Shown: in pieces, positions 5,926 to 29,490 of the stretch
Layout of the letters: every line of letters begins with the position of its first letter
How positions within the stretch are numbered: the stretch's first letter is position 1
From: an archaeon
Lineage (GTDB): Archaea; Iainarchaeota; Iainarchaeia; Iainarchaeales; CSSED10-239
Reading direction: 5' to 3'
Assembly: GCA_035390665.1 (NCBI GenBank)
Contig: DAOOUC010000001.1
Location: 1 to 32,000 of the forward strand
Length of the DNA: 32,000 bases
Made by a program: the position numbers and the translations under genes
The notes under the pieces: generated by a model
The model's input: only the letters and a program-made list of their open reading frames with translations
Told to the model about the DNA's origin: nothing
Databases searched by the model: none

Positions 5926-6043
5926 AAATATTTCACTTTTTTAAAATTAGATTAAGATAATTAGTCTGTTATACTATATACTATATATTATATTTATAAA
6001 TATATTGTAGTGCAAAATGTTTAAAAATAGAAGTAAAAGTATT

Positions 6044-6436: not shown

Positions 6437-6597
6437 AAATATTTCTCATTTTTAAAAAGATAAATCTAAATCAATTAGACATATATATACCTGATATAAT
6501 ATTTTATAAATACATCATAGTTAAAAAATAAATATTTATATATTTTTTGTTATATATATTTAATATAATGTTAGAAATAATTAACTTGTGACAAACT

Positions 6598-7002
6598 ATG
6601 AAAACAAAAAAAAACAATAAACAAAAATATAGACTAATGATTGCTTTTGGTGCATTTTTTGCAGCAGTTGCATCATTCTGTTCTTTTCATAATTTAATAT
6701 CTGATGCTGTTGCATCTGGAATAATCGGCGCGGCAACTTGTTTGTTTACGATTGGTATTGTTAGATTATATATTAGAAAAGAACCATTGATAGATGAAAT
6801 GGTAAAAACCGCAAATCAAAAAGCAATTTCTGGGGTATGGGTATTAACTTTAATTTTAACAACAATGTTATTTTGGATAAATTTAATTTTTAAAGATAAA
6901 TTATCTGTAATGCTTGTATTATCCATAATCTTATATTTTATGCTTTTTAGTGTCTTGATATTAAGATATTATTATTTGAAACATGGAATTGAAAAAACAT
7001 GA
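6598..7002 (+). CDS. DUF2178-like membrane protein
   Basis: 134 aa with four hydrophobic helices and a central [12 protein letters not shown] segment resembling the DER-containing loop of DUF2178 proteins. Its stop overlaps the start of the downstream HTH gene (ATGA), the usual arrangement for this pair. Confidence 0.55.
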
Positions 7003-7211
7003 AAACAAAACTAAAAGAATTCCGTGCAAGATTTAATATTACTCAAGAAGATCTTGCAAATAAAGTAGGAGTTAGAAGAGAAACAATTCTTTTTATTGAA
7101 AAAGGAAAATATAACCCTTCATTAAAACTTGCAAAAAAGATAGCTAATGTCTTTAATGAAAAAATAGACGATATTTTTATATTTGATAAAAAAGAATTAG
7201 AAGCAGATTAA
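6999..7211 (+). CDS. XRE-family helix-turn-helix transcriptional regulator (YozG-like)
   Basis: 70 aa. [48 protein letters not shown] is a textbook Cro/C1 (XRE) HTH. It is translationally coupled to the upstream membrane protein. Confidence 0.9.
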
Positions 7212-15890: not shown

Positions 15891-15898
15891 AAACTATC

Positions 15899-17224
15899 TT
15901 ACTCTAATTCAAAAGTACTTGCCATAAACTCTAATTGATTAGAGAAATCATTCATCTTTGCTTTTCCTGTAACTATTACGTGCTTACCAAATAATTTCTT
16001 TTCTGCTTTATAATAGATTTCATCTTTTTCTTCAGGAGTTAAATCTTTTTTAAGTTCTTCTTTTTTTACTTCAAAGGCGTCTTCTAGTAATTGGTTAAAA
16101 AGACTTACTTTTATTACTCCTGTGCCGTCATCAATATTAATTGAAGAGAAGGTGTTCATTGTTGGATCTACAGGTTTATTACAAGCCTCACAAATAAATT
16201 CATTATTTATTAAGAAAACTTTTTCTTTACATTCTGGGCATTTAAATGACCTTAATGCTCCTTTGTTAATTGTTACAACTGTTCCACTTATCTTGTAGTT
16301 GTTATTATTTTCTAAATTGGATATTTTTTCCTCTTTTATATCTGTTGTTGTTAATTCTGAAAGACTTGGTATCTTTATTTTTGTTTTTGGATTTTTAGTA
16401 ATTGTTGAGTTCCAGTTGATATATAGTTCTAACTCAGAATCAAAATTTCTTTCTTTTATTGTTACATCACTTAATCTTACTAAATCGCCTTTTGAAAAAC
16501 TATTTGAAATCTCTTTAGCAAATGCATCAAAAGCAACACACCTTATGGATTTTATTCCATCACTTACTTCAAAGTTAATTACTTGCCTTTCCTTATCTTC
16601 TTTTGTAAATGTTTTTATTGGATAAATATTTATTATTCTTGCAATGGTGTCTACTGGTGATGTTGGTGGGGAATCAATTTCAGAAATCTTAACTGCGGTC
16701 TCTTTTATTTTTGGAATGTCTATTCCTTCAGGATCTTTTATTATTTGTCCGCCTTGTCTTAATGATAGTTCTGTTTTTTCATTATATTGATTTACTCCTG
16801 CATCTTTAATAAGTAACAAATCGTTTTTTTCTAAATTTAATTCTTTAACTATCTCTGCTTTATCTTGCCATAAATTTAATTTTATAAAACCTGTTTCGTC
16901 TTCTAGGTAAAGTGCTTGAATCTTGCCATCACTTCCATCTTTTGATTTGTATATTTTTACTGGAGGAATTGATTTTACTCTTGCATATAAAGAAACAGAA
17001 TCAATGCTTGCTGAAATTTCAGAAACTTTAGTTATTGCACTAGCTTGTTGTTTTAAATCCAGATCTACTCCAAATTGCTTTGAAAGAAGAATGTTTGCTC
17101 CAACATCACTTAAAAGACCTTCGTATTTAGTTTTTATTTCTTCTAATTTTGTTTGAAGCTCAGAATCAGATTTTCCTGTTTGTTTTTTAATAATATTATA
17201 AATTTGTTCACTTGTAAGTTGCAT
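15899..17224 (-). CDS. rpa: replication protein A (ssDNA-binding, multi-OB-fold with zinc ribbon)
   Basis: 441 aa with repeated OB-fold modules (e.g. ISLYARVKSIPPVKIY.., TIARIINIYPIKTF.., YKISGTVVTINKGALRSF) and a C4 zinc ribbon embedded in the last OB (CPECKEKV..CEACNKPV), as in archaeal RPA1/RPA41. Confidence 0.88.
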   Translation of the reverse strand: MQLTSEQIYNIIKKQTGKSDSELQTKLEEIKTKYEGLLSDVGANILLSKQFGVDLDLKQQASAITKVSEISASIDSVSLYARVKSIPPVKIYKSKDGSDGKIQALYLEDETGFIKLNLWQDKAEIVKELNLEKNDLLLIKDAGVNQYNEKTELSLRQGGQIIKDPEGIDIPKIKETAVKISEIDSPPTSPVDTIARIINIYPIKTFTKEDKERQVINFEVSDGIKSIRCVAFDAFAKEISNSFSKGDLVRLSDVTIKERNFDSELELYINWNSTITKNPKTKIKIPSLSELTTTDIKEEKISNLENNNNYKISGTVVTINKGALRSFKCPECKEKVFLINNEFICEACNKPVDPTMNTFSSINIDDGTGVIKVSLFNQLLEDAFEVKKEELKKDLTPEEKDEIYYKAEKKLFGKHVIVTGKAKMNDFSNQLEFMASTFELE

Positions 17225-17308
17225 TATTTTTCACCTAATATATATTTATGAAAACAATATATTAAAAAGTTACCTGGAGCGGCCACCTTTTGTAATATTT
17301 GGAATTTA

Positions 17309-17626
17309 TTATGTAATTATTTCTCTTAATAATTTCTCTAATTCTAAATATATTTCTTTTCTTTTGCTATAGCACAAATAACAAATTTTTTGCATAACTG
17401 TATGTTTTGGCAACATAAAAATGTAATTTAATTTTAGTATACTTTCTTTTATTAACCCATCTCCTTTAGTCAATCTTATTCCAGACATTTTTAAATTACT
17501 AGTTATACCAATAACAACAATATTTTCAAAATCAGAAAATAAAACAAAGGCAGGCCTTATTTTAGAATTAGAATTATCAATAAATGGAACATCTATTAAA
17601 ACTATTTCTCCTGCTTTGACCTCCAT
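17309..17626 (-). CDS. type II toxin, PemK/MazF family
   Basis: AGEIVLIDVPFIDNSNSKIRPAFVLF...IVVIGITSN matches the MazF/PemK SH3-like core. The track start (17635) is TTG; the ATG at 17624-17626 is likelier. The gene overlaps the 3' end of the upstream antitoxin-like ORF. Confidence 0.8.
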   Translation of the reverse strand: MEVKAGEIVLIDVPFIDNSNSKIRPAFVLFSDFENIVVIGITSNLKMSGIRLTKGDGLIKESILKLNYIFMLPKHTVMQKICYLCYSKRKEIYLELEKLLREIIT

Positions 17627-17838
17627 TTTTCCCAATCCTCATCTTCTTTATTATCCCATAATTCTTTCATTTTTGTTTTTTGAGCGGCAAGCACAATTTT
17701 AAGATATTCATCTTTTGCTTTTCTAGACTTTAATAGATTAGATATTACTTCATCAAAAGATTGCCTTGGGTGCAGCTTTAATTTTTTTAAATTATTTACT
17801 ACTGTTTTTGACAACTGGATTGTTGTATATTCTTGCAT
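17602..17838 (-). CDS. putative antitoxin partner of the MazF-like toxin
   Basis: Small ORF immediately upstream of and overlapping the toxin gene. The N-terminal TTIQLSKTVVNNLKKLKLHPRQSFDEVISNLL resembles archaeal antitoxin-type DNA-binding N-termini. The track start (17850) is the GTG of a GGTGA SD; ATG at 17836-17838. Confidence 0.6.
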   Translation of the reverse strand: MQEYTTIQLSKTVVNNLKKLKLHPRQSFDEVISNLLKSRKAKDEYLKIVLAAQKTKMKELWDNKEDEDWEKWRSKQEK

Positions 17839-17920
17839 ATCTATAATCACCTATAAGTAATTATAGTTGGATGCTCTTTTAAACCCTATAGTTATATTAG
17901 TGTTTTTCAAAAGGGCATAT

Positions 17921-17946
17921 TTTTCGGGGGGGTAGCTGTCCAGTGC
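17921..17946. repeat. GC-rich conserved block, copy 1 (TTTTCGGGGGGGTAGCTGTCCAGTGC)
   Basis: Exact 26-nt match to copy 3 and one mismatch to copy 2. The upstream flank GTTTTTCAAAAGGGCAT is also shared with copy 3. It lies 83 nt upstream of the minus-strand antitoxin ATG and 78 nt upstream of the plus-strand ATPase ATG. Confidence 0.9.
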
Positions 17947-18023
17947 GAGAAACCAAAACAAAGAAATATAAATATAAAGTTGTATTATATATTTACTAAA
18001 ATATATTTTAAGAATGAGAAAAC

Positions 18024-20336
18024 ATGAAGATTGGTAACTATACTGTTGGAGATTATGTTGTTGATAATGAGGGGGGAAAGAAAAAGCTTGTCTTTGATTG
18101 TAGACATTGTGTTTACAATACTTCTATATCTGATGATCCGAGATGTAGATACCACGTCATGAAGATATTAGAAACCGTTGATGCTGATGAAGTTATTTTA
18201 GCTGAAGTTTATGAAAGAGTTTATACTCAAAAACAAATTTCATACTTAAGAGAAATGGTTGATCTTTTGCTTGATTTTGAAAATAGAGCTGTTTGGATTT
18301 CATCTCATCTTGGTGTGGATGATATTGATTGTGAAGAGTGCTATCCACAAAGACATAATAATATTATTAGATTTACAAGAGATCTTTTAGCATATGATCC
18401 TATTGCCTCATATATTTCACTTTTAAGAGAAATAGAAAACACAAGAAACAGAGGAGAAGAACAATCTGATAAACCTTGTTCTAAATGTTTTAAAGCCAAT
18501 CTAAAACACCTTCTTTCTTTAAGAGAACAATATGATTCTACTGATTTTATTAAAGCATTAAAACCAATTCTTACTAAAGTAAAAGACTTTAATGACTTAA
18601 CTGACATTTATAAAACACTATTTGAAGCACAAATTAAACCTGCTTTTATTGGCTCACAATTACTTAGAAGTGATGCAGAAAAATTCGAGCTTGTTGACGA
18701 ATATCCTGTTTTAACATCTAATGTTCAGATTTTTAAACACCCTGAAAAGGTTGAATTTATTTACAATATCAATCCTCCAGAGTACACTTTGTCTCCGGAT
18801 CATTATTTTGTTTTATCTAAAACAAAAGAAACTGTTGCTAACTATCAGCCAGGTAAAGTAACTTTAACTTCTGGAAGTGGAACACGAAAATATTTCCAAA
18901 GAATATATCAGAGCACAATTTCTGATGTTGCAAGAAGATATGGAATTAGTCTTTCACCAGATGACGTTATTTCACTTTCAGAAATTGTTACAAGATATAC
19001 TATTGGTTACGGGATATTAGAGATGGTTTTATCAGATAGAAGAGTAACAGATGTTTATATTGATTCTCCAATTGGTGGTAGACCAATCTATCTTGTGCAT
19101 TCACAATATGGCCAATGTCAAACAAATATTCTTTATACAGACAAAGAAGCAGAAAGCCTTATTGGAAAGATGAGAGCAATGTCTGGCAGACCATTTGATG
19201 ATGCTCATCCAATCTTAGACTTTGATATACCCGATCTTAACACAAGAGTTGCTGCTATTGGAAGGCCTCTAGCCACTGATGGTAATGCTTTTGCTTTTAG
19301 ATTACATAAAGATACTCCTTGGACTTTGCCTCAACTTATTAATTTTAAATCACTTAGCCCACTAGCTGCAGGATTATTATCTTTTTTTATTGATAATAAC
19401 TCTACTCTTTTAGTTGCAGGTTCTCGTGGTTCTGGTAAGACTTCTTTAATGACAGCTTTAATGCTTGAAATCTTACAGAATAAAAGAATTATTGTTCAGG
19501 AAGATACCCTCGAGTTACCAATTATGTATCTTAAAGATATTGGATTTAATGCTCAAAGACTTAAAACTAAATCAGCTGTTGGTGCTGGAGAAGAATCTGT
19601 TGAAGTTGAACCTGCTGATGCCTTAAGAACTGCTCTAAGACTTGGCGATTCTGCAATCATTGTTGGTGAAGTTAGAAGTGTTGAAGCAAAAGTTCTTTAT
19701 GAAGCAATGAGAGTTGGTGCTGCGGGAAACGTTGTTATGGGGACAATACACGCAGATTCTGCTTATGCTGTTTGGGATAGAGTTGTTAACGACCTAGAGG
19801 TTCCAACAACCTCTTTTAAAGCAACTGATTTGGTTGTTGTTGCAAGACCAATAAGATTTAAAGGCTCTTTAAAAAGTTATAGAAGAGTTGTTCAGATTAC
19901 TGAAGTTAAAAAACATTGGAATCAAGACCCAGATGCAGAAGGCGGACTTCTTGATATTATGACTTATGATGCAAGTAAAGACTCATTAATACTTAATGAA
20001 GATGCACTTAAGGATTCTGATCTTTTTACAAAGATTTCTACTCTTTCAGGTTTAACTATTGAAGAAATCTGGGATAATATTAAGATGCTTGCAGGAGAAA
20101 AAGAATATCAAGTAGAACTTGCAAGAGAACTTAAATGTATTGAGCTACTTGAAGCAGAAAACACTGTTGCTGCACACAACAAGCTATTGATACTTAAAGA
20201 AGAATGGATAGAAGACCATGGAAAAGTCAATTATTCAGAGCTACTTACAGAATGGAAGAGATGGTATAAAGAAGACTTCTGCCCAAAGATTGTAAAAAGA
20301 ATAAACGAGAATAAAGAAAAGGAAAAAGAAGAATAA
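18024..20336 (+). CDS. type II/IV secretion-system ATPase (FlaI/PilB/VirB11 superfamily) with long N-terminal extension
   Basis: 770 aa. The C-terminal half has Walker A (VAGSRGSGKTSLM), an Asp box (IIVQEDTLEL), Walker B (IIVGEVRSVEA) and a His box (GTIHADSA). The N-terminal region of about 450 aa contains Cys clusters (CRHCVYN..CRYH, CEECYPQRH, CSKCF). Confidence 0.88.
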   Translation: MKIGNYTVGDYVVDNEGGKKKLVFDCRHCVYNTSISDDPRCRYHVMKILETVDADEVILAEVYERVYTQKQISYLREMVDLLLDFENRAVWISSHLGVDDIDCEECYPQRHNNIIRFTRDLLAYDPIASYISLLREIENTRNRGEEQSDKPCSKCFKANLKHLLSLREQYDSTDFIKALKPILTKVKDFNDLTDIYKTLFEAQIKPAFIGSQLLRSDAEKFELVDEYPVLTSNVQIFKHPEKVEFIYNINPPEYTLSPDHYFVLSKTKETVANYQPGKVTLTSGSGTRKYFQRIYQSTISDVARRYGISLSPDDVISLSEIVTRYTIGYGILEMVLSDRRVTDVYIDSPIGGRPIYLVHSQYGQCQTNILYTDKEAESLIGKMRAMSGRPFDDAHPILDFDIPDLNTRVAAIGRPLATDGNAFAFRLHKDTPWTLPQLINFKSLSPLAAGLLSFFIDNNSTLLVAGSRGSGKTSLMTALMLEILQNKRIIVQEDTLELPIMYLKDIGFNAQRLKTKSAVGAGEESVEVEPADALRTALRLGDSAIIVGEVRSVEAKVLYEAMRVGAAGNVVMGTIHADSAYAVWDRVVNDLEVPTTSFKATDLVVVARPIRFKGSLKSYRRVVQITEVKKHWNQDPDAEGGLLDIMTYDASKDSLILNEDALKDSDLFTKISTLSGLTIEEIWDNIKMLAGEKEYQVELARELKCIELLEAENTVAAHNKLLILKEEWIEDHGKVNYSELLTEWKRWYKEDFCPKIVKRINENKEKEKEE

Positions 20337-20340
20337 CTAA

Positions 20341-21234
20341 CTAAGCAGAATACTTTATTATTTTCTTTTTAGGACTAAGTAATTTCTTTTGCTTCTCTTC
20401 TAATTTTTTCTTTTCAGAAAAGTAGTTGTCTTTTGTAACTACTTTTTGATAGGTTTTTGATTCTAGTTCTTTTCTTGCATTCTTTGCTATTCCTCCACCA
20501 ATTATTCCTGACTCTTTGTTTTCTGTAAAACCTGTTGATTTTGTGGATTCTGCAACTTTTCTTGTTGATAATTCTGCTAGGGCTGTAAAAATAATTTCTG
20601 CATCAGTCATGTGATCTCTTAAATTGTCTTTATCTATGCCTTTTAGTTTTTTATGTTCTTTAACTGTTAAATCTGACCACTCTTGATGTATTATGTTTGT
20701 TAATATAGCATATTCCTCTGGAGTTTTAATCTCGTGGTTCTTCCAATAATTTGTTAATTTGTTTCTTATTTCTTGACCAAGCATTCTTTGTTGTATCCAT
20801 TGCTCGTCATAACCTTTTTGTAGCCAGATATTTCTGGCTCTGTTTATGGCTAATTCTGGATCGATTATTTCTTTTATTCTTTGATTACCAACTCTAGCAA
20901 GCCAAAGTTTGAATGGTTCTGCTTTCTTTGAAGGAATTGATTGTATTATTCTAAATATTCCTTCCAAGTTTGCACAATCTGTTTCATAAAATTTGCCATC
21001 AGAAGATTGTAATTTCAGTTGTACGATTTTACCGTACAACTGATTATTAGTTGTAACCACTTCGCTTCCTTCTTCTTTCAGTTTTATTTTAAGATCTGAC
21101 CAATATCTCTTTGGCTCAGAACTTTCAGTTAATGCCCTTACCACATCTACTACAGAGTACCACCAATCTTCTTGATGCCACATCCGTCTTATATTTTTAT
21201 CTTCAAAAACCTCAATTTGATTTATATCACTCAT
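20341..21234 (-). CDS. Bro-N domain protein, DinD-like (DNA-damage-inducible protein D family)
   Basis: N-terminal Bro-N pattern (IRRMWHQEDWWYSVVDVVRALTES..PKRYWSDLK) followed by DCANLEGIFRIIQSIPSKKAEPFKLWLARVG and NLRDHMTDAEIIFTALAE, as in bacterial DinD-type proteins. The track start (21246) is TTG; the ATG at 21232-21234 follows a GGTGA. Confidence 0.8.
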   Translation of the reverse strand: MSDINQIEVFEDKNIRRMWHQEDWWYSVVDVVRALTESSEPKRYWSDLKIKLKEEGSEVVTTNNQLYGKIVQLKLQSSDGKFYETDCANLEGIFRIIQSIPSKKAEPFKLWLARVGNQRIKEIIDPELAINRARNIWLQKGYDEQWIQQRMLGQEIRNKLTNYWKNHEIKTPEEYAILTNIIHQEWSDLTVKEHKKLKGIDKDNLRDHMTDAEIIFTALAELSTRKVAESTKSTGFTENKESGIIGGGIAKNARKELESKTYQKVVTKDNYFSEKKKLEEKQKKLLSPKKKIIKYSA

Positions 21235-21254
21235 CTTGATCACCAATAATATAG

Positions 21255-21425
21255 TAGCGATTATAAGAAGGGGGTATTTTCGGGAGGGTAGCTGTCCAGT
21301 GCAACCGGTTGCGGTCTCATAAAAAATCCTAATTTTTTAGGATCCTAAAAAGTCTTTGACTTTTTTTGAGGTTGGCGCCCAGCCTGGTTGTGTGTTGTTC
21401 TACTAACCCCTTTAGAAAAGTTGTT
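21255..21425. other. extended GC-rich conserved intergenic element, copy 2 (candidate structured RNA or cis-regulatory module)
   Basis: Contains the block TTTTCGGGAGGGTAGCTGTCCAGTGCA (21277-21303), a variable insert with nested inverted repeats, then TTGTGTGTTGTTCTA (21388-21402) and CCCCTTTAGAAAAG (21407-21420). The last two are shared with copy 3. It is markedly more GC-rich than its surroundings. Confidence 0.8.
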
Positions 21426-21533
21426 GCGATCCCAAAAACTACGATTTAAAGAAATGTTTGTTGTTTTCTTGAGAATTAGACATATGAAAATTTCAAATTA
21501 ACAAAATTAAAAAAATAGAAAAAAGGAAGAACT

Positions 21534-21764
21534 TTATTTCTTCTTTTTTTTACTTGATTTTTTTATTTTAGTTTTGGCTTGCTTTTTCTTTTTAGAGAAA
21601 ACAAAGATATATAGCAATGGCAATATACCTGCAGTATTAAAAATAAAAATAAACACAAACCAAATAAGGTGATTATTTTTACCTGCCTTCCATAAAGCTA
21701 TACCTTTCCAAACCATTTCCCATATTGCTAAAAGAACAAATGCAATTAGAACGAATGTATCCAT
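21534..21764 (-). CDS. DUF5652-like small membrane protein
   Basis: 76 aa with two TM helices. The WKGIALWKAGKNN...FIFNTAGILPLLYIF pattern is typical of small CPR/DPANN membrane proteins, and the tail is poly-Lys. A strong AGGAGGG SD lies upstream and oligo-T runs lie downstream. Confidence 0.6.
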   Translation of the reverse strand: MDTFVLIAFVLLAIWEMVWKGIALWKAGKNNHLIWFVFIFIFNTAGILPLLYIFVFSKKKKQAKTKIKKSSKKKKK

Positions 21765-21910
21765 AGTAGTTATCCCTCCTTAAAACAATTTAATTAAAAA
21801 CTTTTAAAAATGGAACTGTAAGCAATATTTTCAGTATATATTTAAAATATTTAAAATAAAGATAATAATCTATAATCTGTTTGGTAGAAACAAAAAGAAA
21901 GTCAATAAAA

Positions 21911-21950
21911 GATGAAAACTCTTGACTACGACACCCTGTATCATCTGCAG
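21911..21950 (-). pseudogene. degenerate relic of the S-layer gene 3' end
   Basis: GATGAAAACTCTTGACTACGACACCCTGTATCATCTGCAG aligns with 23490-27 (GATGAAAGCTCTTGTAGCTGCACCTGTATCATCTGCAG). The alignment includes a 16-nt exact core, CCTGTATCATCTGCAG (21935-21950 = 23512-23527). The relic encodes ..ADDTG.. and then goes out of frame. Confidence 0.7.
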
Positions 21951-21962
21951 AAAAATCTTAAA

Positions 21963-23159
21963 CTAATATAAAAATCCAAATAGAAACAATGGGATTTTAT
22001 TACCATCACAAGCTAAACTATCTACTACTAAATAGTCTGCTTTTTGCTTGTTTTTTTTATTTTCTCCACCAACTTCAAAGACTTTATTATTTATCATAAA
22101 ATCCGCAGATTTCTCTTTACCTGTCTTAATATAACACTCAGCATTACTTAAATATACAAAAAAATCTTCTCTAAGTGAGCCAAGATTTGGATTTTTATTT
22201 AAGGTGTGATTAAAAAAATATCTAAATGGCAAATTAAGAAATATTTTAGGATCTGTTCTTATTAGTGGATATCCTGAATTACAAGATCTTAGTTGTTTTA
22301 AAATATTTATTTTTTCTAAATCTGCAATTATAGCTACAATTGTATTTCTACTCACTCCATTTATAGATTTGGATAAATTTGAATAACTCATTTCAAATGG
22401 AGCAGATGTAGATAATAGATATAAAATGTTATATATGTCTGTTTCAACTTTCGGATTTATAGATCTTAAGTTACTGATGTCTGAATATATTATTTTTTTA
22501 AAAATATTATCTATTGATTTATAAAATTCAGAGATATCTTTACTTTTATTATATAGAAAACCACCGAATTTGCAATAATCAGTATAATAATCATAATATA
22601 TTGAATAATTATTTACTAATGTTTTTCTTTTTTTATTATCTAGTAAGTCTTCTTGCTTTATTGGTTCTATATTTTTATCATACATTATGTTAATGTATTC
22701 TCTTAGGGATGCTTGTTTTAATTCATATAATAAAACCCTTCTTGATAAGTCTGCGCCCTTTAATATATTTAGAGAAGAAGAACTTGTAAAATAAATTTTT
22801 ACTTTTTCTTCATCATAAATATTTTTTAAATGTTGTTGCCAATTTTCTTTGTAAGCTATTTCATCTATAAATATGTTTTTATATTCTTTTTTTATTAAAA
22901 ATTTTAAAATATCATAAAGGCTATATTTAGATAAATATATAGAATCTGCTGAGAAATAAATTGCATCTTTTTTTTTGTCAAATAATTGTAATAGTAATAT
23001 TGTTTTACCAATTCCTCGTAAACCAGTTATTCCTATAAAATAATCAGAATTATAATTTACTAGATCATTATAAAGATATCTAGTTTTTGGATATCCCTTA
23101 ACTACTTCTTTTTTATTTTGACTTTCTTGAAACATTTTAGAAAAGATAACTTCATTCAT
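21963..23159 (-). CDS. AAA+ ATPase (COG1373-like, AAA plus DUF4143-type C-terminal region)
   Basis: 398 aa. Walker A (GITGLRGIGKTILLLQL), Walker B (NIFIDEIAY), and a C-terminal winged-helix-like and nuclease-like region ending in a conserved-looking D/E-rich core (ADFMINNKVFEVGGENK). Confidence 0.75.
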   Translation of the reverse strand: MNEVIFSKMFQESQNKKEVVKGYPKTRYLYNDLVNYNSDYFIGITGLRGIGKTILLLQLFDKKKDAIYFSADSIYLSKYSLYDILKFLIKKEYKNIFIDEIAYKENWQQHLKNIYDEEKVKIYFTSSSSLNILKGADLSRRVLLYELKQASLREYINIMYDKNIEPIKQEDLLDNKKRKTLVNNYSIYYDYYTDYCKFGGFLYNKSKDISEFYKSIDNIFKKIIYSDISNLRSINPKVETDIYNILYLLSTSAPFEMSYSNLSKSINGVSRNTIVAIIADLEKINILKQLRSCNSGYPLIRTDPKIFLNLPFRYFFNHTLNKNPNLGSLREDFFVYLSNAECYIKTGKEKSADFMINNKVFEVGGENKKNKQKADYLVVDSLACDGNKIPLFLFGFLY

Positions 23160-23200
23160 TATTATTCACAAATATATATGAGTGAAAAGGTTTTTAAATA

Positions 23201-23325
23201 TGTCAGAGGATTGACAGAAAATGAGTTTTTTTAGTCAATCTCTTGACAATATAGATTAGCCTGTGCTTTTTAAAAGTGTCATTGAAAATGACGCTTTTTT
23301 CATTTTTTTGTCATTTAAAGTGACA
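23201..23325. promoter_or_regulatory. array of TGTCA-N6/7-TGACA inverted repeats upstream of the AAA ATPase gene
   Basis: TGTCAgaggatTGACA (23201-23216), GTCAAtctcTTGAC (23234-23247), TGTCAttgaaaaTGACg (23277-23293) and TGTCAtttaaagTGACA (23309-23325). All lie within 170 nt upstream of the ATG at 23159. Confidence 0.55.
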
Positions 23326-23432
23326 GATTTAAGTTATTTAAAATTATAATAATTTAGTCTTATAGTAAGAATAAAAATAAACTACAGACATAAAAAGAAT
23401 TAAAATTTAAACTAAAAGAAAAAAGAAAGAAA

Positions 23433-23456
23433 GTTAATAGAATTTCTTCTATTAAC
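23433..23456 (-). terminator. intrinsic terminator-like hairpin downstream of the S-layer gene
   Basis: Perfect 10-bp inverted repeat GTTAATAGAA-TTTC-TTCTATTAAC starting 19 nt past the stop codon. On the minus strand it is followed by a T-rich run (TTTCTTTCTTTTTTCTTTT). Confidence 0.7.
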
Positions 23457-23474
23457 TTATATTGTGTTTTCTAC

Positions 23475-25838
23475 TTATTGTATTGCTGTGATGAAAGCTC
23501 TTGTAGCTGCACCTGTATCATCTGCAGTGAAACCAGCAACAACTATGTTACCTGTTGTAGTATCTTTACCCATTACCCATTGACCTGCTTGTGTTAAGTA
23601 ATCGTTTGTTACACCAACAGCTAACTTGTTAGCTAAGTGACCACCGACTATGATCTTTGTACCAGCAACTGAAGCTAAATCAGACTTTACTAAGTTGATT
23701 GGATCAACATTTGCAGGAACTGTTGTTGTGTATGAACCTGTAGTTGCATCTGTTCCTTCTGTTCCTTCTGTTGTTGTTGTTCCGTTACCTACGAAAACTT
23801 TTCCATATAATTTATCTTCAGGAACTGTTGCTGTAAATGTTCCACCGTCTACTTCTAACTTAGTACCCCATGTTGTATAACCGAATCTCAAATCGTCTGT
23901 TTCTTCTTGATTTAATGTGAATCCTGTTGCTACAACTTGATCTAATCCTGCTTCGTAAGAGGAGTCGTCTGTATCAACTAATTCTCCAGTATATGCATCA
24001 ATATATGCTACTGCAGTTTGTGAAGAATCATCTATTGTTAATGAAAACATAGATTCCATATCTGTGTCTGTTACTGTTGTTGCGCCAACATTTGTTGCAC
24101 CAACATATGTATCTGCATTTGCATCATCTGTGCCTATATCGTAGTAGATTTTACTTACTGTCCATGATTGACTAGATTCTAATGTATCTGTTGCGCCGTC
24201 TTTTAAAGCAACAGCTAATTCTGTTATTGTGTCTGTATCTTCGTTTAAGAATACACCGTATGCTATCTTTTTAGTCTCGTTGTTATATAATGGGATTGTT
24301 ATATCTACGAATCCAACGAAATCATCTGCTTCTCCATCTGATGCATTTCCATCGAAATAGAATTTTTCTGTAGCTGCAGGGGTTGCTGTAGATTTCCATG
24401 ACCAACTGCTAGCTGTAGATAAGAATTTACCGTCGTCATTTTCTAATTGAACGGTGAAATATCCTGATTCCTTTGTACCGGTTTGTGTTAAATCATCGTC
24501 TGTATAGAATTCGAAGTATAAATTTTTTCCATCGATTTCTTTTGTTGTTGTATAATTGTCTCCATCTGCATAAGTGCTGTCGTCGTGTTCATAGATAAAT
24601 ATATCGTGATCATCGTCGCTTGCATCAGTATATGAAAGATATCCGTTTTCAACAATTACTTGTTTACTTGATTCATCACTTAATCCTAAGAAATTTATTT
24701 TTGCAAAGTTGTTTGGTAATGAAATTTCATCTCCAACTTTAAGTGCATCATCATCTTTATAACGTATATCTTGATCATCATTATAGAAACTGATTGTAGT
24801 TACTGTGTCTCCAGAAGAATATGACCCCTCTGCATTAAATTGAACTTTCCATAATTCGTCTCCTATTTCTGGGAAGTCTTCAACAATTTGTCCATCAGTT
24901 AAATCAATTCTTGCACTTGTTCCTGAAACAACAGTTACTCTTGAATTATATACTGTGTCTATTTCTGTATCTATGTCTAAGTAATCATCAAAGATAGTAT
25001 CTCCATCGCCATAGACTTCTGTTGCTAATGTAGTTCCATCTTTACTTATTGACATTTCAACTTCGTATTGTGTTCCTGATGATGAACTCTCTAATATTTC
25101 TTCTATTGTTACAGTATAGTCTTCAACTTCAAAAGATGCACCTACAGTATATGGTATTGTTGCTTTATTTTGTACTAAGGTCATTGTATTTGTGGTATAA
25201 TCTTCTAATGTATATTGTTTACCGAATATATTGAATTTTAAGTCGGGACTTCCGTTATCTGTAGCATTTACATCTATTCCTGGAGTAAACTCTATTCTAT
25301 ACTCTATACCTTCTTTATCAATTGCTGCGGTTAAATCTGCTATGTCTTTATCGTCATCAAATGAAACAGTGGATGTAATATCTAATTTTTCTTTGACATT
25401 TATTGTATCGTCACCAAATTCTTCATCATCTACTCTTACATCATAATCTCCAAGTAGCGTGTAGTCGCCATCATCTAATTCTAATGTTCTTGAATTGCCT
25501 AAATCAAACAAATCGTCACTTAATTTACCGTCTCCGGAAACTGTTGTTGTTCCTGTTGTTCCTTCTGTGCCTGGAATCTCGTATGTGTGTGTCTCGGTTG
25601 TGTATGCTTTAGATGCAATTGCTGCTGCAATGTTACCTGCCCAGATTGAATCTGCTGCTTGTGATTCGTTTCCAACTATTATTGTTGCTGTTGGCATTCC
25701 GTTTGTGCCGATTACGTCGCCCTTTACTACTGGACTACCGAAATCAACTTGTGCTGCTACTGCTGCACCTAAGAAACTTGCACCTACTGCAAGTGCTGCT
25801 GCGCCAGCAATAACTTTTTTTGTATTTATATTCTTCAT
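23475..25838 (-). CDS. putative S-layer/major surface (glyco)protein
   Basis: 787 aa. N-terminal signal peptide (KKVIAGAAALAVGASFLGAAVAA), then an acidic Thr/Asp/Gly-rich, Cys-free sequence with many N-x-S/T sequons. It has a strong GGAGG SD, a long upstream leader, its own terminator, and noticeably higher GC and biased codon use than its neighbours. Confidence 0.7.
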   Translation of the reverse strand: MKNINTKKVIAGAAALAVGASFLGAAVAAQVDFGSPVVKGDVIGTNGMPTATIIVGNESQAADSIWAGNIAAAIASKAYTTETHTYEIPGTEGTTGTTTVSGDGKLSDDLFDLGNSRTLELDDGDYTLLGDYDVRVDDEEFGDDTINVKEKLDITSTVSFDDDKDIADLTAAIDKEGIEYRIEFTPGIDVNATDNGSPDLKFNIFGKQYTLEDYTTNTMTLVQNKATIPYTVGASFEVEDYTVTIEEILESSSSGTQYEVEMSISKDGTTLATEVYGDGDTIFDDYLDIDTEIDTVYNSRVTVVSGTSARIDLTDGQIVEDFPEIGDELWKVQFNAEGSYSSGDTVTTISFYNDDQDIRYKDDDALKVGDEISLPNNFAKINFLGLSDESSKQVIVENGYLSYTDASDDDHDIFIYEHDDSTYADGDNYTTTKEIDGKNLYFEFYTDDDLTQTGTKESGYFTVQLENDDGKFLSTASSWSWKSTATPAATEKFYFDGNASDGEADDFVGFVDITIPLYNNETKKIAYGVFLNEDTDTITELAVALKDGATDTLESSQSWTVSKIYYDIGTDDANADTYVGATNVGATTVTDTDMESMFSLTIDDSSQTAVAYIDAYTGELVDTDDSSYEAGLDQVVATGFTLNQEETDDLRFGYTTWGTKLEVDGGTFTATVPEDKLYGKVFVGNGTTTTEGTEGTDATTGSYTTTVPANVDPINLVKSDLASVAGTKIIVGGHLANKLAVGVTNDYLTQAGQWVMGKDTTTGNIVVAGFTADDTGAATRAFITAIQ

Positions 25839-26258
25839 TTTATTTCCTCCATTGTTGATTTTCTTTTTCTAGAAAAGAAAACCGTTTTGTTTTATGAAGA
25901 TTGAATCTGCATTTATGTTTTGACCTAAAAAAATAAAACGGTACTAAACAGATTCACACTAATGTCTCGAAGTAATTACTTCAAGATATAAGACTTTATT
26001 GTGGAATAATGTTTATAAATGGTTTGTTTTTGGATTGTTAACAACTGGTGCTTATAAATGCATGCAGAGAAAGGGATTACAGGAAATATTGGTTGTTTGG
26101 TTATGTATAACTAACTACTAAAAAGCTAATTTTTAAAAAAAATTAAAAGTAAGAGACTAATATATATATAATATATTATAAAAGAGAAATAAGATTACAA
26201 AAATCCCTGTAAGACTTATATCTTTTTCTGCCCTTTCTTCTTTAGATATATCTCTAAC

Positions 26259-27215
26259 TTAATCTAATCTGTCTAATATGGTTAATGAATCTTTATCTAG
26301 TTTTGAAAATGCAACCCATCTTTTGCCAAGATCTTTAATGGATGCACCTAAATGATATATTTCTTTTTTATCAAGAATTAAAAAACGATCATGGCTTTTA
26401 GTAAAGTGCTTTAGTTTAATATTTGAATATTGATTGTTATATTTCTCCAAATCAAGTTTAAGTTTTTCTGTAATTTTATCTGTATATATTGTAATTTCTA
26501 TATTTTTTAGATTTGAAAATAGCACAAGAACTGATTCATCTATGTAGTTATCTATAAGAATTATTGATTTATTTGCATTTTTAAAAAGATTATTAATAAA
26601 TAGGTAAGCGTCAAATATTTGACCATCATAAAAAACACCTTGTGTTTTTAACACACTTTTATTTGAAATTGCATCAAATATCTTTTCTACTTTTTTATCA
26701 GTTTCTATTTGTTTGTTTTCTAAATTATCTACTCTTACAAACAAATCAGCATTTTTGTGTATTAATTGCCTCATAGAAATAAAGGCACGCATTATGTAAA
26801 TATTTATCAATATTGCCCTTTTACTTTTTAAAACTCCAGAAAGCATTGCTATGCCTTGTTCAGTAAAAACGAATGGAAGTTTACGTTTCCCGCCCCATTC
26901 TAAACTTGAAGTCACAAATTGTGACTTCAAGATTTTTGAGTTTTGGTTTGAGATTGCAAATTGTGACATCAAACGATTATCATCAATACTAGCATTTTCA
27001 GTTAATTCCATCAGAATTTCAAATTCCTTAGAAGTTAATTGAAACATAAAATCTTCAGGAAATCTATCACTGTTTCTCTTAACGGCCTGATTCAATACTT
27101 TAGTAGGGACACCATAAAGTTCTGCAAGATCGCTGTCAAGCATTACTTTTGTGTTTCTTACCGTGTGTATTTTACTAGTTAAGTTTTCTACAAGTACTAA
27201 ATTATCTGAAGTCAT
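26259..27215 (-). CDS. ORF6N domain protein (KilA-N/Bro-N superfamily DNA-binding protein)
   Basis: 318 aa. VRNTKVMLDSDLAELYGVPTKVLNQAVKRNSDRFPEDFMFQLT and WGGKRKLPFVFTEQGIAMLSGVLKS are the ORF6N signature. The C-terminal IILIDNYIDESVL..HDRFLILD..YHLGASIKDLGKRWVAFSKL matches the usual C-terminal domain of this family. Confidence 0.85.
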   Translation of the reverse strand: MTSDNLVLVENLTSKIHTVRNTKVMLDSDLAELYGVPTKVLNQAVKRNSDRFPEDFMFQLTSKEFEILMELTENASIDDNRLMSQFAISNQNSKILKSQFVTSSLEWGGKRKLPFVFTEQGIAMLSGVLKSKRAILINIYIMRAFISMRQLIHKNADLFVRVDNLENKQIETDKKVEKIFDAISNKSVLKTQGVFYDGQIFDAYLFINNLFKNANKSIILIDNYIDESVLVLFSNLKNIEITIYTDKITEKLKLDLEKYNNQYSNIKLKHFTKSHDRFLILDKKEIYHLGASIKDLGKRWVAFSKLDKDSLTILDRLD

Positions 27216-27221
27216 AAATAT

Positions 27222-27424
27222 ATATTGTTTTCAAAAAAAGGCATTGTTTTCGGGGGGGTAGCTGTCCAGTGCAATCTACTGTTTTCTGGTGGGTAATCTG
27301 CCCGATTGTGTGTTATTCTAATGGTGCTCCTTTAAAAAATTGCTTTACACAAATTTTTGGCTTCTATAAAACCAGACAGTAGAATAACCGGTTTTGCCAG
27401 AGATCGGTTGGTAGAGTGCCCGGT
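27222..27424. other. extended GC-rich conserved intergenic element, copy 3 (candidate structured RNA or cis-regulatory module)
   Basis: Contains the block TTTTCGGGGGGGTAGCTGTCCAGTGCA (27246-27272), TTGTGTGTTATTCTA (27305-27319) and CTCCTTTAAAAAAT (27326-27339). It also has two related 20-mers (27287-27306 and 27405-24, 15/20 identical) and an 11-bp long-range complement (27275-27289 with 27370-27381). Confidence 0.8.
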
Positions 27425-28705
27425 TTATTTTTGAGATAATAGCCACTGATATAATGGAATATAATATATTGTATTTTTGCCAAGCTTTTCTTCTTTAGAT
27501 AGATCTTTAGTAATTATTGTGCCTTTATCTATATTTAATGAAGCCATAGCTTCTAGAAGACCATTTATTTCTCTATCTTTTGTAGAGTCATTAAAATCAA
27601 AACAAACTTGTATTGCTTCTACTTTGTTATTAGTTACGGCAATAAAATCACATTCGCTTTTACCTTTAAAATAGTAAACTTCTTTATTTTTTCTTTTTAG
27701 CTCAATAAAAACAAGATTTTCAAAATTCCAGCCATCGTTAGTGCCTGGTCTTTTAAGTAAACAATTAGAAAGACCTGTATCTATTACATAACATTTTTTA
27801 GGATTACTGTTTTGTTTTCTTTTTGAATTTGAATATATTGGTACAAAGAAAAAATACATTGTGTTATCTATATAATCTGAAAACAAATAAAGTGTGTCTT
27901 TACTTATTGCTCTATTTTGAGACTTTAAATAATTATAATAGCTATTTACTGAAAAACCCCTTGAGTTGTTATTTACTAAATACAAAAGTAAATCTTTAAC
28001 TATGTCTATTTGCTTTATGTTATATCTTTCTATAATGTCTCTAAAAATTAGAACATTAAAATAATTTTGTAGAACTTCGCACCTTATTTGTGAATCTATT
28101 GCTATTACTTCTGGAAAGCCCCCATTTGTTAGATAGTTTTCTAATTCTCTAACTAAGACATGCCTTTTAGAAGAATATATAGTTGTATTATCAACCTTAA
28201 TTCCCTTAAACTCTAAATATTCTATAAAACTAAAAGGATAAACATAAATATCATAGGTTCTACCTCTTAATTCTGTTGATATTTCTTTACTTAATAATTT
28301 TGCTGAAGAGCCAGTAATAAATATTTTACATCTCTCTTTGTCGTAAATTCTTCGTATAAATTTTTGCCAACCATCTACACTTTGAATTTCATCAAAGAAA
28401 AAATAAATTTCCTCACCTTTATTTTGAGGATATAACTCAAAGTAATAATCTAAAATCTTTTGAAAATCAGTTATATTAAAATCCGAAAGTCTTTCATCTT
28501 CAAAATTTAAATATATTATTTTATCTTTTGAGATATCTTTTAAATCATATATTATCTGATATAGCATACTTGTTTTACCTGATCTTCTTGGGCCAATTAT
28601 TGTAATTATCTTATTTATATCTGGTATTTTATAATATCTAGGCAATAATTTTTTTTCAGGACACCCTTCTAATAATATTACTTTAAATAATTCTTTGTCT
28701 AACAT
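27425..28705 (-). CDS. AAA+ ATPase (AAA_14 plus DUF4143 type, COG1373)
   Basis: Walker A (IIGPRRSGKTSMLYQ), Walker B (YFFFDEIQSV) and sensor region (IFITGSSAKLL), with a C-terminal DUF4143-like/restriction-endonuclease-like end (ECDFIAV...EAIQVC). The track start (28711) is GTG; the ATG at 28703-28705 is likelier. Confidence 0.85.
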   Translation of the reverse strand: MLDKELFKVILLEGCPEKKLLPRYYKIPDINKIITIIGPRRSGKTSMLYQIIYDLKDISKDKIIYLNFEDERLSDFNITDFQKILDYYFELYPQNKGEEIYFFFDEIQSVDGWQKFIRRIYDKERCKIFITGSSAKLLSKEISTELRGRTYDIYVYPFSFIEYLEFKGIKVDNTTIYSSKRHVLVRELENYLTNGGFPEVIAIDSQIRCEVLQNYFNVLIFRDIIERYNIKQIDIVKDLLLYLVNNNSRGFSVNSYYNYLKSQNRAISKDTLYLFSDYIDNTMYFFFVPIYSNSKRKQNSNPKKCYVIDTGLSNCLLKRPGTNDGWNFENLVFIELKRKNKEVYYFKGKSECDFIAVTNNKVEAIQVCFDFNDSTKDREINGLLEAMASLNIDKGTIITKDLSKEEKLGKNTIYYIPLYQWLLSQK

Positions 28706-28744
28706 AAACACACACCATAATATATTTAGTTACAAACACATTAA

Positions 28745-28821: not shown

Positions 28822-29490
28822 TTATCTTCTTAGTTTAGATAATTCTGCATTTTCTCTTTTTAGATCATATATCATCTGAGCATAACCATGAGTCATTTCT
28901 GTTATTATGTGACTTGTTTGTTGAAGATCAGAAATTGTAACTGTGTATTTATCTGGTTTTAAGATTTCAACAGAAGTTGCCCCATAAAAGTAAATTAATC
29001 TAAATAAAGAACTTATATTTGGGCAACTAAGCTCTGCAGAAATAAAAGTAGAAAAAAGATCTTCATGAAGTATAATTTCAGCAATATCTAAAGAATATAT
29101 AGTATAAACTTCATCAGTTTTTAATGCAGAACTAATTTGCTCCATTGCTTTTCTTAAATCTCCTTTATCATTAGCTTTAGATTCAATTAAAATTGCAACC
29201 TTTATTTGGTTCTTATCAGTTTCTGCAATTTTCTTTTTTTCAGATAAACTTTCTTGAACTTCTTTAGATAAAGAGTACTTTATTGGGTATCCTTCCTTAG
29301 TTATTAACTTTAAAAACAACATATTTTTTAGAACCTTAATAAGTTCGTCATATTTTGCGCCAGGAATTGCAGACAATAACTCATCTTCGGTTTTAGAACC
29401 GTTTTTAAGTTCTTTGCCAACAAGGGTTTGTAACTCTTGTATTGCAACTCTTTCCTTTAATTGAGAGGATTCATAATCTAATTCAGTCAT
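28822..29490 (-). CDS. hypothetical protein, possible N-terminal winged-helix domain
   Basis: 222-aa ORF with ATG start. The N-terminal 80 aa have a wHTH-like helix/strand pattern (ELLSAIPGAKYDELIKVLKNMLFLKLITKEGYPIKYSL). The rest is unassigned. Confidence 0.5.
   Translation of the reverse strand: MTELDYESSQLKERVAIQELQTLVGKELKNGSKTEDELLSAIPGAKYDELIKVLKNMLFLKLITKEGYPIKYSLSKEVQESLSEKKKIAETDKNQIKVAILIESKANDKGDLRKAMEQISSALKTDEVYTIYSLDIAEIILHEDLFSTFISAELSCPNISSLFRLIYFYGATSVEILKPDKYTVTISDLQQTSHIITEMTHGYAQMIYDLKRENAELSKLRR

Follow-up and report, generated by a model that had tools for sequence, protein, structure and literature searches.

In bacteria, SOS boxes precede recA, ssb, polB, uvrA, dinD, toxin-antitoxin genes and prophage antirepressors, and the LexA operators are palindromes of the CTGT-N8-ACAG or CGAAC-N4-GTTCG type. 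Archaea are, to our knowledge, without LexA, and we know of no archaea other than the Sulfolobales with a well-described transcriptional response to DNA damage. Archaeal upstream activating sites that abut the transcription factor B (TFB) recognition element (BRE) and the TATA box are exemplified by those of Ptr2 and GvpE. This report concerns a 26-nucleotide (nt) block that is present three times in a 32,000-nt stretch of archaeal DNA (contig DAOOUC010000001.1, positions 1 to 32,000; the window hereafter means this whole stretch), each time ahead of a gene on the minus strand. Judging from comparison with related loci, the block is quite probably a cis-regulatory promoter element common to a set of repair and recombination genes.

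Within the Sulfolobales, Orc1-2 regulates DNA-damage genes, and among the targets reported are the ups pili, the ced DNA-import system and genes of cell division (PMC9738581). The damage networks described in PMC9738581, PMC6101594 and PMC2175319 involve Orc1-2 with its DNA damage-responsive element (DDRE), TFB3 and Sta1, and PMC6101594 and bioRxiv 10.64898/2026.09.06.749720 present TFB3 or TFB2 as defining gene sets in the Sulfolobales. In the literature searched, nothing relevant was found on a DNA-damage regulon of DPANN archaea or Diapherotrites, or on a radA promoter motif.

The model proposed here, which we consider likely, is that of a putative transcription factor binding site beside the core promoter that would define a small DNA-repair and recombination regulon. 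The element would be a lineage-specific cis-element in which a putative protein-binding site abuts the BRE/TATA position of the downstream minus-strand gene, and one putative sequence-specific factor would bind all copies and co-regulate approximately 5-8 promoters per genome. The predicted members are radA, a PolB-fold gene, radC, the DinD-like Bro-N gene, ORF6N (with uvrA in one genome), KilA-N, the YhcG nuclease and VapB-like/MazF beside replication factor A (RPA). DNA damage is the most likely trigger, with about an even chance of being the right one. The motif and its lineage are new here, and the element is filed under a kind already known, the regulon element of a transcription factor.

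The repeat and its conserved module

On the plus strand the 26-mer TTTTCGGGGGGGTAGCTGTCCAGTGC is found exactly at 17921-17946 and 27247-27272 and, with one G>A change, at 21277-21302; an earlier note on this DNA had placed the last copy at 27246-27271, one base too low. The copies, named W1, W2 and W3 in the order of their coordinates, are direct repeats spaced 3.4 and 6.0 kb apart, each ahead of a gene. The gaps from the 26-mer to the ATG codons at 17838, 21234 and 27215 are 83, 43 and 32 nt, in agreement with the 30-85 nt ahead of minus-strand genes given in that note, and the extended flank that it described for W1 and W3 measures 59 nt at 78% identity. The chance expectation for the 26-mer is zero (0 matches in 100 dinucleotide-preserving shuffles), and no further match with up to three mismatches occurs across the window, which has a GC content of approximately 29%. 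The loose core GCAYYGGNCA matches the window at the same three places only (0.21 expected), and neither an nhmmer profile built from 25 sites nor a fuzzy search of the window returned an additional copy. The same block was found in independent assemblies from NCBI, JGI, ENA and Logan, so the repeat is not an assembly artefact, and the three-copy, same-strand repeat that was first noticed is real. The window itself is ordinary archaeal chromosome, encoding acetate kinase, topoisomerase VI A and B, RIO kinase, aIF1A, aIF2-beta and MCM, along with RPA, an S-layer protein and a FlaI/VirB11-type ATPase.

Loci outside the window, designated by L numbers, were collected by pattern scans. A species-level scan with CGGGRGGGTAGCTGTCCAGTGC (one genome per species) gave 8 loci in five metagenome-assembled genomes of uncultured archaea, and a metagenome scan with CGGNNNGGTAGCTGTCCAGTGC gave 26 further loci, of which L009, L015, L021 and L034 fell in GC-rich bacterial coding sequence and were discarded. 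The single match from a scan of viral contigs was likewise rejected as a GC-rich false positive. After de-duplication there are 26 distinct sites, all on AT-rich archaeal contigs. At every site with readable downstream sequence (24/24), a same-strand gene begins 56-117 nt away from the start of the motif, a result with p ~6e-8 under random orientation. Close RadA relatives of the motif-bearing genomes carry the depositor labels Diapherotrites or Iainarchaeum, and from these names the lineage is taken to be DPANN.

Conservation stops sharply just after ...CAGTGC on the plus strand and runs on for approximately 56 nt on the other side. Read on the minus strand, the module starts with GCACTGGACAGCTACCCYCCCG (positions 1-22, window-clade form), and the wider core of the element is YYGGNCANNTAC followed by a C-rich run. 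Positions 22-30 hold the A-rich GAAAATAM where relatives hold a true TATA box, positions 23-33 read AAAA and then YRMCCCY, and after position 33 comes a T-rich and then an A-rich stretch, often TTTTGAAAAAC, making up a C-rich and T/A-rich spacer. An AT-rich block, ATATATTATT, occupies positions 45-56. Three arrangements follow the module: an immediate ATG at offset 56-58 (ORF6N, YhcG, RadC and a 95-aa protein), a GGTGAT-type Shine-Dalgarno sequence with the ATG at offset 66-74 (Bro-N, KilA-N and the L001 ORF6N), or 45-60 nt more of gene-specific leader (radA, the PolB-like gene and the antitoxin). A pyrimidine-rich flank (cTTTc) appears before the motif in many sites.

Comparison of orthologous promoters indicates that the module is under purifying selection, as positions 1-33 are 88-100% identical versus 38-73% for the 60 nt upstream, with 50-97% identity in the remaining leader and 65-99% in the first 150 coding nt. 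A second set of 12 loci was chosen by protein identity, independently of the motif, and comprises nine radA (73-88%), two PolB-like (46% and 65%) and one Bro-N (60%). Within this set, 10 of the 12 loci carry YYGGNCANNTAC with at most one mismatch, no more than 200 nt upstream and in the correct orientation, where a background of 0.16 per kb per strand leads to an expectation of approximately 0.03 per locus. The variants include two tandem sites in L037 (CCACTGGACAGC and CCACTGGACAAGAACCCCC), CTGGCCTACTGGCCACCACCCC in L043, GCATCGGTCATTTACTCTTCCGAAAATAACCC in L046, and GCACTGGACAACTAC at 2949-2963 of L047 (labelled Candidatus Woesearchaeota) ahead of a Bro-N gene. Since this Woesearchaeota-labelled homologue carries the motif, the exact-match scans under-sample variants and the motif is wider than they show.

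The variants also change together within a genome. A radA promoter (L039) and the promoter of a PolB-like gene (L045) have the identical variant CTCGGCCAGCTACCC, and the joint occurrence of their proteins (P0051/P0140) on a 671-kb contig suggests that the two loci belong to one distant genome. A shared variant of this sort is what a factor and its sites would leave if they evolved together. The number of sites also varies, with two tandem CCACTGGACA sites in both L037 and L041 and extra degenerate copies in L033, as is typical of protein-binding sites. The motif is absent from three bacterial plasmid homologues of the Bro-N gene (44-52% identity), so the element belongs to the host lineage and not to the mobile gene, and the possibility that the motif travels with the Bro-N gene was rejected on the same three homologues. 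Fixed orientation and distance, conservation above the flanks, presence at loci chosen without the motif, and co-change within a genome are among the generic features of a transcription factor site that defines a regulon, and the module shows these four.

A separate element, the 17-19-bp palindrome GTYGACAATTTGTCRAC, forms arrays upstream of motif-bearing Bro-N promoters in three other genomes, at L005:6280-6440, L022 (220 nt ahead of the motif) and L020:900-960. These arrays resemble the operators of a second, dimeric regulator, and in the window the palindrome has no significant occurrence.

Downstream genes and promoter geometry

The genes that directly follow the module in the collected loci are listed below with the number of sites for each.

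RadA: 4 sites (Pfam Rad51, E = 9.5e-93)
486-aa PolB-fold protein without a Pfam or NCBIfam match: 3 sites
Bro-N/DinD-like protein: 5 sites
ORF6N protein: 3 sites
YhcG/DUF1016 PD-(D/E)xK nuclease: 3 sites
KilA-N protein: 1 site
RadC: 1 site (NCBIfam, E = 1.1e-22)
VapB-like/MazF, then RPA: 2 sites
Small proteins without assignment: 2 sites

The repair and recombination members expected of a DNA-damage regulon are represented by RadA, RadC, the PolB-fold protein, the YhcG nuclease and the adjacency of uvrA and uvrC. In L001 the strand of the motif-bearing ORF6N gene also carries uvrA, 90 nt downstream of that gene and at offset 1122 from the motif, and in L033 (7537-9108) uvrC is divergent from the motif-bearing Bro-N promoter, with two more degenerate copies in the 183-nt gap. 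One 293-kb contig carries five exact copies, ahead of radA, the PolB-like gene, Bro-N, YhcG and the toxin-antitoxin module, and a sixth, degenerate copy between mazF and RPA. The description of the downstream genes as accessory, made from the window, is half right, as the regulon also takes in core repair genes. The proposal of a common operator or promoter module for a small regulon, one of three explanations in the earlier note, is strongly supported and reaches beyond the three genes of the window, given that the module stands ahead of radA, PolB-like, radC, YhcG nuclease and KilA-N genes in relatives, in a single orientation and at a set distance.

The PolB-like family (approximately 485 aa) is lineage-restricted, with 35 clusters, and the motif precedes it at all five loci examined (L003:4589-6049, L004, L010, L045:10001-11452 and L046:212-1669). 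A search of PDB sequences with this protein gave nothing useful. The AlphaFold model of the 486-aa protein has a predicted local distance difference test score (pLDDT) of 87, and its best Foldseek matches are all archaeal or eukaryotic family-B DNA polymerases (E = 2e-6, template modelling score ~0.45). Based on these structural matches, the protein is a putative miniature PolB-like protein. A DFSNxxP stretch in the family resembles polymerase motif A by eye only.

The three copies of the window and the genes next to them are as follows.

17925-17946, minus strand: 22-nt core of W1, GCACTGGACAGCTACCCCCCCG, module positions 1-22, with a sharp conservation edge at 17946; putative transcription factor site
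17891-17924, minus strand: remainder of the W1 module, positions 23-56, with AAAAATAT at the predicted TATA position, GCCC, TTTTGAAAAAC and AT-rich ACTAATATAAC
15267-17851, minus strand: genes downstream of W1, with the Shine-Dalgarno sequence GGTGAT at 17846-17851
17602-17838, minus strand: VapB/CopG-like antitoxin, downstream of W1
17309-17635, minus strand: PemK/MazF toxin, downstream of W1
15899-17224, minus strand: RPA, with its own TATA-like promoter
15267-15890, minus strand: 207-aa protein with no assigned function, in the W1 downstream set
18024-20336, plus strand: type II/IV secretion (FlaI/VirB11-like) ATPase, divergent from W1, its ATG 78 nt from the motif edge
21281-21302, minus strand: 22-nt core of W2, GCACTGGACAGCTACCCTCCCG
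21247-21280, minus strand: remainder of the W2 module, with AAAATACC at the predicted TATA position, CCCTTCTTATAATCGC and AT-rich TACTATATTATT
21239-21244, minus strand: Shine-Dalgarno sequence GGTGAT of W2
20341-21234, minus strand: Bro-N protein of a DinD-like family (Pfam PF02498, E = 1.6e-9), predicted to be under W2 control
27251-27272, minus strand: 22-nt core of W3, GCACTGGACAGCTACCCCCCCG
27217-27250, minus strand: remainder of the W3 module, with AAAACAAT, GCC, TTTTTTTGAAAAC and AATATATATT
26259-27215, minus strand: ORF6N protein (Pfam PF10543, E = 7.6e-34), predicted to be under W3 control

The remainder of the W1 module was delimited from an alignment of 20-25 sites and its promoter geometry was read from relatives; the AT-rich ACTAATATAAC directly precedes the predicted transcription start. 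At W3 a single T (27216) separates the block from the ATG at 27215 and there is no intervening Shine-Dalgarno sequence, so the mRNA would be leaderless or nearly so. The sites in L014 and L001 that are orthologous to W3 carry the same module.

Among the more distant relatives, an A-rich, BRE-like stretch comes immediately after the motif, and with it a good TATA box, which lies within approximately 6-15 nt after the motif in six loci (9 nt in L047). The sequences read as follows.

L037: CCAAAAGAG-ATATATAT
L039: CCAAAAAAC-ATATATTC
L043: CCGAAAGTA-ATATCTAT
L045: TTGAAAAAG-AATATACC
L040 (GC-rich): CCCGATG-TTTAAAAG
L047: GCATAAGC-TATTTAAA

In L047 the TATA box starts 28 nt before the ATG, a leaderless spacing (apparently leaderless genes of the window show approximately 30 nt by eye), and the motif is thus upstream of the transcription start there. 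In L039 the TATA box (29-36) and an AT-rich block (47-58) sit at nearly the coordinates of the window module. Since these coordinates match and the positions of the ATG or Shine-Dalgarno sequence are fixed, a transcription start near position 55-60 is indicated, which would put the putative binding site at about -56 to -35, abutting the BRE/TATA. The order of the module would then be a binding site at 1-22, the A-rich stretch at 22-30, a spacer, the AT-rich block at 45-56, the start at ~55-60, and finally the ATG alone or GGTGAT and ATG. Other assignments were tried and rejected: AATATATTATT (positions 45-55) as the TATA box leaves only 1-15 nt to the ATG or Shine-Dalgarno sequence, TTTTGAAAAAC fails on the same short spacing, and a bacterial -35/-10 promoter has the wrong spacing and an archaeal host.

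Annotation of the window genes upholds part of the family labels first given to them. The toxin, Bro-N and ORF6N labels are borne out, with the toxin matching PemK at E = 3e-5, just above the curated cut-off, while the supposed MazE-like antitoxin instead matches VapB/CopG-like families (VAPB_antitox and DUF7557), both just under the cut-offs, and one source names the CopG family, not MazE. The Bro-N protein belongs to a very widespread family of bacteria and archaea; for homologues with approximately 60% identity across approximately 90% of its length, JGI uses the name DNA-damage-inducible protein D, and other sources use Bro-N or antirepressor. NCBIfam gives no match for the window protein, and DinD-like is therefore a plausible and unproven label. 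Relatives at this level of identity occur in Rickettsia, Parcubacteria, Comamonadaceae, Deltaproteobacteria and Woesearchaeota, an exceptional degree of conservation, and the family has evidently been horizontally transferred.

The L032 locus of the 293-kb contig is syntenic with 15.9-20.3 kb of the window, with gene order kept, and W1 probably descends from a former RPA-serving site on the strength of this synteny. At L032:4362-5046 two motif copies flank the vapB-like/mazF pair, the second of which (GCACTGGACACCTACC...) is 264 nt upstream of RPA; in the corresponding window segment (17225-17946) the second copy and approximately 190 nt around it are absent. This comparison suggests that the toxin-antitoxin module was inserted behind an older motif-RPA promoter, duplicating it. 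The arrangement of motif and divergent ATPase is also found in L032, and the FlaI/VirB11-like ATPase is possibly co-regulated with the W1 genes.

Some further features lie beside the copies or elsewhere in the window. A second short block on the minus strand, TAGAAyAACACACAAyC...GGGC, occurs at 21371-21400 and 27300-27330, upstream of W2 and W3, and in L014; it sits in unusually GC-rich, hairpin-containing intergenic stretches (21303-21440 and 27273-27424). No Rfam match was obtained here. Another GC-rich block, GGCGCGAGC...GAAACCGGCTC, takes the corresponding place in L001, L017 and L033. The gene for an AAA_14/DUF4143 ATPase just upstream of W3 (27425-28711) is absent at 1850-1953 of L014, and since this relative is very close, the difference reflects a recent insertion or deletion. 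Related AAA_14 genes are found at 21963-23159 of the window and in L032. A 222-aa protein without a family match is encoded at 28822-29490, beside the W3 site both in the window and in L014, where its gene follows the motif by approximately 100 nt; its N-terminal part is winged-helix-like by eye. Farther away, at 6598-7211, a 134-aa open reading frame (ORF) without a family match overlaps by 4 nt the gene for a 70-aa XRE-type helix-turn-helix protein (PF01381, E = 5.8e-16), and the two look like a toxin-antitoxin or small regulator pair. The adjoining 5930-6600 has approximately 25% GC and many AT palindromes.

Alternative explanations for the block

The favoured reading, a transcription factor site beside the core promoter, draws entirely on comparative evidence from the genomes of uncultured organisms, and several observations weigh against it. 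The 22-bp site is non-palindromic, and both its length and its conservation are unusual for a simple operator. The search pattern itself accounts for part of the invariance seen at positions 1-16 and 20-22 of the scanned sites; several of positions 23-33, outside that pattern, are still at least 90% conserved. The transcription start is placed by spacing alone, and the TATA position of the window clade holds only GAAAATAM and then a C-run, which is a poor TATA box. So weak a TATA suits an activator that would recruit TATA-binding protein (TBP) and TFB, and a repressor occluding the BRE/TATA position would fit equally well with the unbroken conservation there. About 10 of the 26 sites (L006, L010, L020, L024, L025, L003, L004, L007, L023 and L032) show a canonical TATA box that stands 4-5 nt ahead of position 1, as in tttataaacttt directly before the initial GCAC. 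Its forms (TTTATAAA, TTTAAATA, TTTTTAAA and TTTAAAAA) vary in sequence at a fixed position, no window copy has one, and in L020 no divergent gene was found for it to serve. If the upstream TATA box is used toward the gene, the motif would fall between TATA and start and the rest of the module would be 5' untranslated region (UTR); these sites may have a second promoter of this layout. Membership of RPA in the regulon is uncertain because RPA has its own TATA-like promoter. As for the trigger, DNA damage is suggested by gene content alone, and a recombinase, RadC, a single-strand binding protein and a neighbouring pilus-type ATPase would also fit a competence-like or cell-cycle programme. It is unlikely that the module is instead a special core-promoter class, in which an extended C-rich BRE and upstream contacts are read by an alternative TFB/TBP paralogue without a separate regulator. 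Such a class would account for the CCCYCCCG run, which is at the BRE position if the start is near 56, for the conservation that is unbroken from the motif into the TATA position, and for ACCCyyCC(G)AAAA being the piece that distant relatives, the GC-rich L040 among them, keep most widely; TFB paralogues that have regulons of their own are also documented (PMC6101594; bioRxiv 10.64898/2026.09.06.749720). However, BRE contacts cover approximately 6-7 bp and not 22, L047 keeps GCACTGGACAACTAC without the C-run, and in L037 and L041 the upstream half recurs by itself 28 nt farther upstream, behaving as a separable site. Equally improbable is an element like the origin recognition box (ORB) for a non-initiator Orc1/Cdc6 paralogue that would head the damage response as its master regulator, comparable to Orc1-2 of Sulfolobales. 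The plus strand reads GGGGGGG-TAGCTG-TCCAGTGC-aa, in which TCCAGTG(.)AA reproduces 9/11 of the dyad TTCCAGTGGAA where the flank is AA, with a G-run near. The L037 sites read CCACTGGACA and CCACTGGA is present in L037. ORBs are themselves long, asymmetric and monomer-bound through a winged-helix domain (dyad) and the initiator-specific motif (ISM; G-track), with the consensus GTTCCAGTGGAAAC-AAA----GGGGG (PMC1868953) and sequences available from Pyrococcus (PMC1904270). The G-run of the block, however, is 5' of the dyad on the G-rich strand, which is the opposite side and polarity, and 6 nt away rather than 7-10, and the wider consensus YYGGNCANNTAC retains only CTGG of the dyad. The sites are also dispersed before genes, with no cluster of inverted repeats about an AT-rich unwinding element by cdc6, no orc1/cdc6 gene was seen in the window or the annotated loci, and the comparison was picked after the fact.

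Readings in which the block acts as RNA or as a recombination site fare less well still. A conserved mRNA 5' end, a leader with a post-transcriptional role as RNA-binding protein site, processing signal or stability signal, is very unlikely; it would make the sharp GCAC boundary the transcription start. The conservation edge exactly at position 1 agrees with this, as do the TATA-like run 25-32 nt upstream of position 1 at W1 and the approximately 10 sites with TATA 4-5 nt upstream, from which positions from ~20 on would be transcribed. The TATA-like sequences upstream of the window copies, on the other hand, are at inconstant distances, a proper TATA box is downstream of the motif in L047, L037, L039, L043 and L045, and the leaderless spacing of L047 means that the motif cannot be transcribed with the gene there. 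Neither strand yields a consensus structure with covariation, as RNAalifold found 2 pairs (-0.7 kcal/mol) on the sense strand and 5 pairs (-4.8 kcal/mol) on the antisense strand with 0 compensatory changes, and folding z-scores are ordinary (for the W3 intergenic region -1.96 on the minus strand, with 6/200 shuffles as stable or more, and -0.78 on the plus strand). The suggestion that the block is the end of a small RNA meets the same objections, together with the TATA box between motif and gene in relatives and the lack of any Rfam or tRNA match: Rfam gave 0 matches over the whole window at the gathering threshold and five chance-level matches over 17000-28000 at E <= 10, none of them at the repeats, ARAGORN found no tRNA or tmRNA in the window, and Rfam and tRNA searches of the related loci gave only one ordinary tRNA, elsewhere. 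The repeats are likewise without Rfam or ARAGORN support as fragments of a known tRNA, rRNA or signal recognition particle (SRP) gene. A split-tRNA half or an SRP/RNase P fragment was rejected as unsupported by Rfam or sequence, and a G-quadruplex because there are three G-runs only. Recombination sites or mobile cassette ends (att-like, as the earlier note had it, or attC-like), or a mobile promoter spreading with the selfish Bro-N, ORF6N, KilA-N and toxin-antitoxin genes, are very unlikely indeed, even though module and gene units differ in place among relatives. Bro-N follows the ATPase in the window and not in L032, the toxin-antitoxin module of L032 is between two copies, the AAA_14 gene is inserted upstream of W3 relative to L014, and many of the genes are typically mobile, the Bro-N family being clearly horizontally transferred. 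Against this, no integrase, transposase or resolvase was identified by Pfam among the 37 main-ORF proteins of the window, nor was any tRNA, and the segments between the copies encode a secretion/archaellum-type ATPase, an S-layer protein, AAA_14 ATPases and a DUF5652 protein, which include core genes; RPA and the pilus/archaellum-type ATPase are found in synteny in another genome. The copies do not form inverted or flanking pairs about the individual genes, the element is kept at orthologous positions before radA and PolB-like core genes in several species with diverged flanks, its diverged variants co-vary within a genome, the bacterial Bro-N homologues are without it, and its sole match in a viral contig is the false positive given above. 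An integron attC is opposed by the absence of an inverted-repeat partner and an integrase at the block, which lies 5' of genes with promoter-like sequence. The presence or absence of module and gene units and of AAA_14 is explained by mobile genes that acquired the host promoter module. Least of all would the 22-mer be the DNA target of an RNA-guided, nuclease-dead repressor of the TldR or Cas type, which is extremely unlikely: the block is long, non-palindromic, near-invariant and sharply bounded, as such a target would be, but all true genomic matches of the 22-mer are in promoter context with extended flank similarity and none is guide-RNA-like, distant relatives keep only a short degenerate core, unlike guide-target evolution, and no TnpB or Cas gene was seen.

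Significance and comparison with known systems

If the model of a transcription factor site holds, the block marks a putative regulon, sequence-defined and testable, of an uncultured DPANN lineage, and the parallel between its genes and those of the bacterial SOS response is striking. The 22-bp site provides a handle for fishing out the regulator, and the regulon would give a functional context to the unannotated PolB-fold family and to the widespread archaeal Bro-N, ORF6N and KilA-N genes. It would also illustrate how genes acquired horizontally (DinD-like, toxin-antitoxin) can join a host regulon through gain of the host promoter module. Should the trigger prove to be DNA uptake or the cell cycle instead, the literature searched would still offer no earlier example of a defined regulon of this kind in DPANN. 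A bolder version, as improbable as the ORB-like element considered above, has the motif as an ORB-derived asymmetric site for a non-initiator Orc1/Cdc6-type (or other dedicated) factor that would serve as an SOS-like master switch in DPANN. If true, Orc1-based damage control would be widespread and ancient in archaea, beyond the Sulfolobales, and reduced DPANN genomes would have kept an inducible repair programme.

The likeness to the bacterial LexA/SOS system lies in one short site common to the promoters of a recombinase, a family-B-like polymerase, DinD-like and antirepressor-type genes (Bro-N/KilA-N/ORF6N) and a toxin-antitoxin pair, with uvrA/uvrC and a single-strand-binding protein included by operon or adjacency. 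Both are small regulons in which the site overlaps or abuts the core promoter. The systems differ in that the host here uses archaeal TATA/BRE promoters, the site is asymmetric as opposed to the CTGT-N8-ACAG palindrome, and no LexA is implicated. The only dyad in the site is CTG-GA-CAG, with 3+3 bp, and a LexA-like gene is absent among the annotated window proteins. The hint at DNA damage that the earlier note took from E. coli dinD thus agrees with the gene list, and its LexA part falls away because the hosts are archaeal and the site is not a LexA-type palindrome. Among bacterial systems that replace LexA control of recA and repair genes, PafBC (RecA-NDp, mycobacteria), DriD (Caulobacter) and DdrO/IrrE (the radiation/desiccation response motif, RDRM, in Deinococcus) also use lineage-specific motifs by the core promoter, and their activator logic would suit the weak TATA of the window clade. 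They differ in having bacterial sigma-70 promoters and other motifs.

The Sulfolobales networks are similar in pairing an asymmetric promoter motif with a dedicated regulator, namely Orc1-2 with the DDRE (ANTTTC), TFB3, and Sta1 at a radA paralogue. The motif, the lineage (DPANN here, Crenarchaeota there) and the gene set are different, and it is radA and a polymerase-like gene that carry the site here. ORB and mini-ORB elements share with the block a long asymmetric site, a short dyad-like core (TCCAGTG) and a nearby G-run, whereas the block has the G-run with inverted polarity and spacing, sites dispersed over promoters, and only CTGG in distant variants. The activating sites of Ptr2 and GvpE are unrelated in sequence and regulon; like the block, they stand immediately upstream of the BRE/TATA with set phasing and a weak TATA box.

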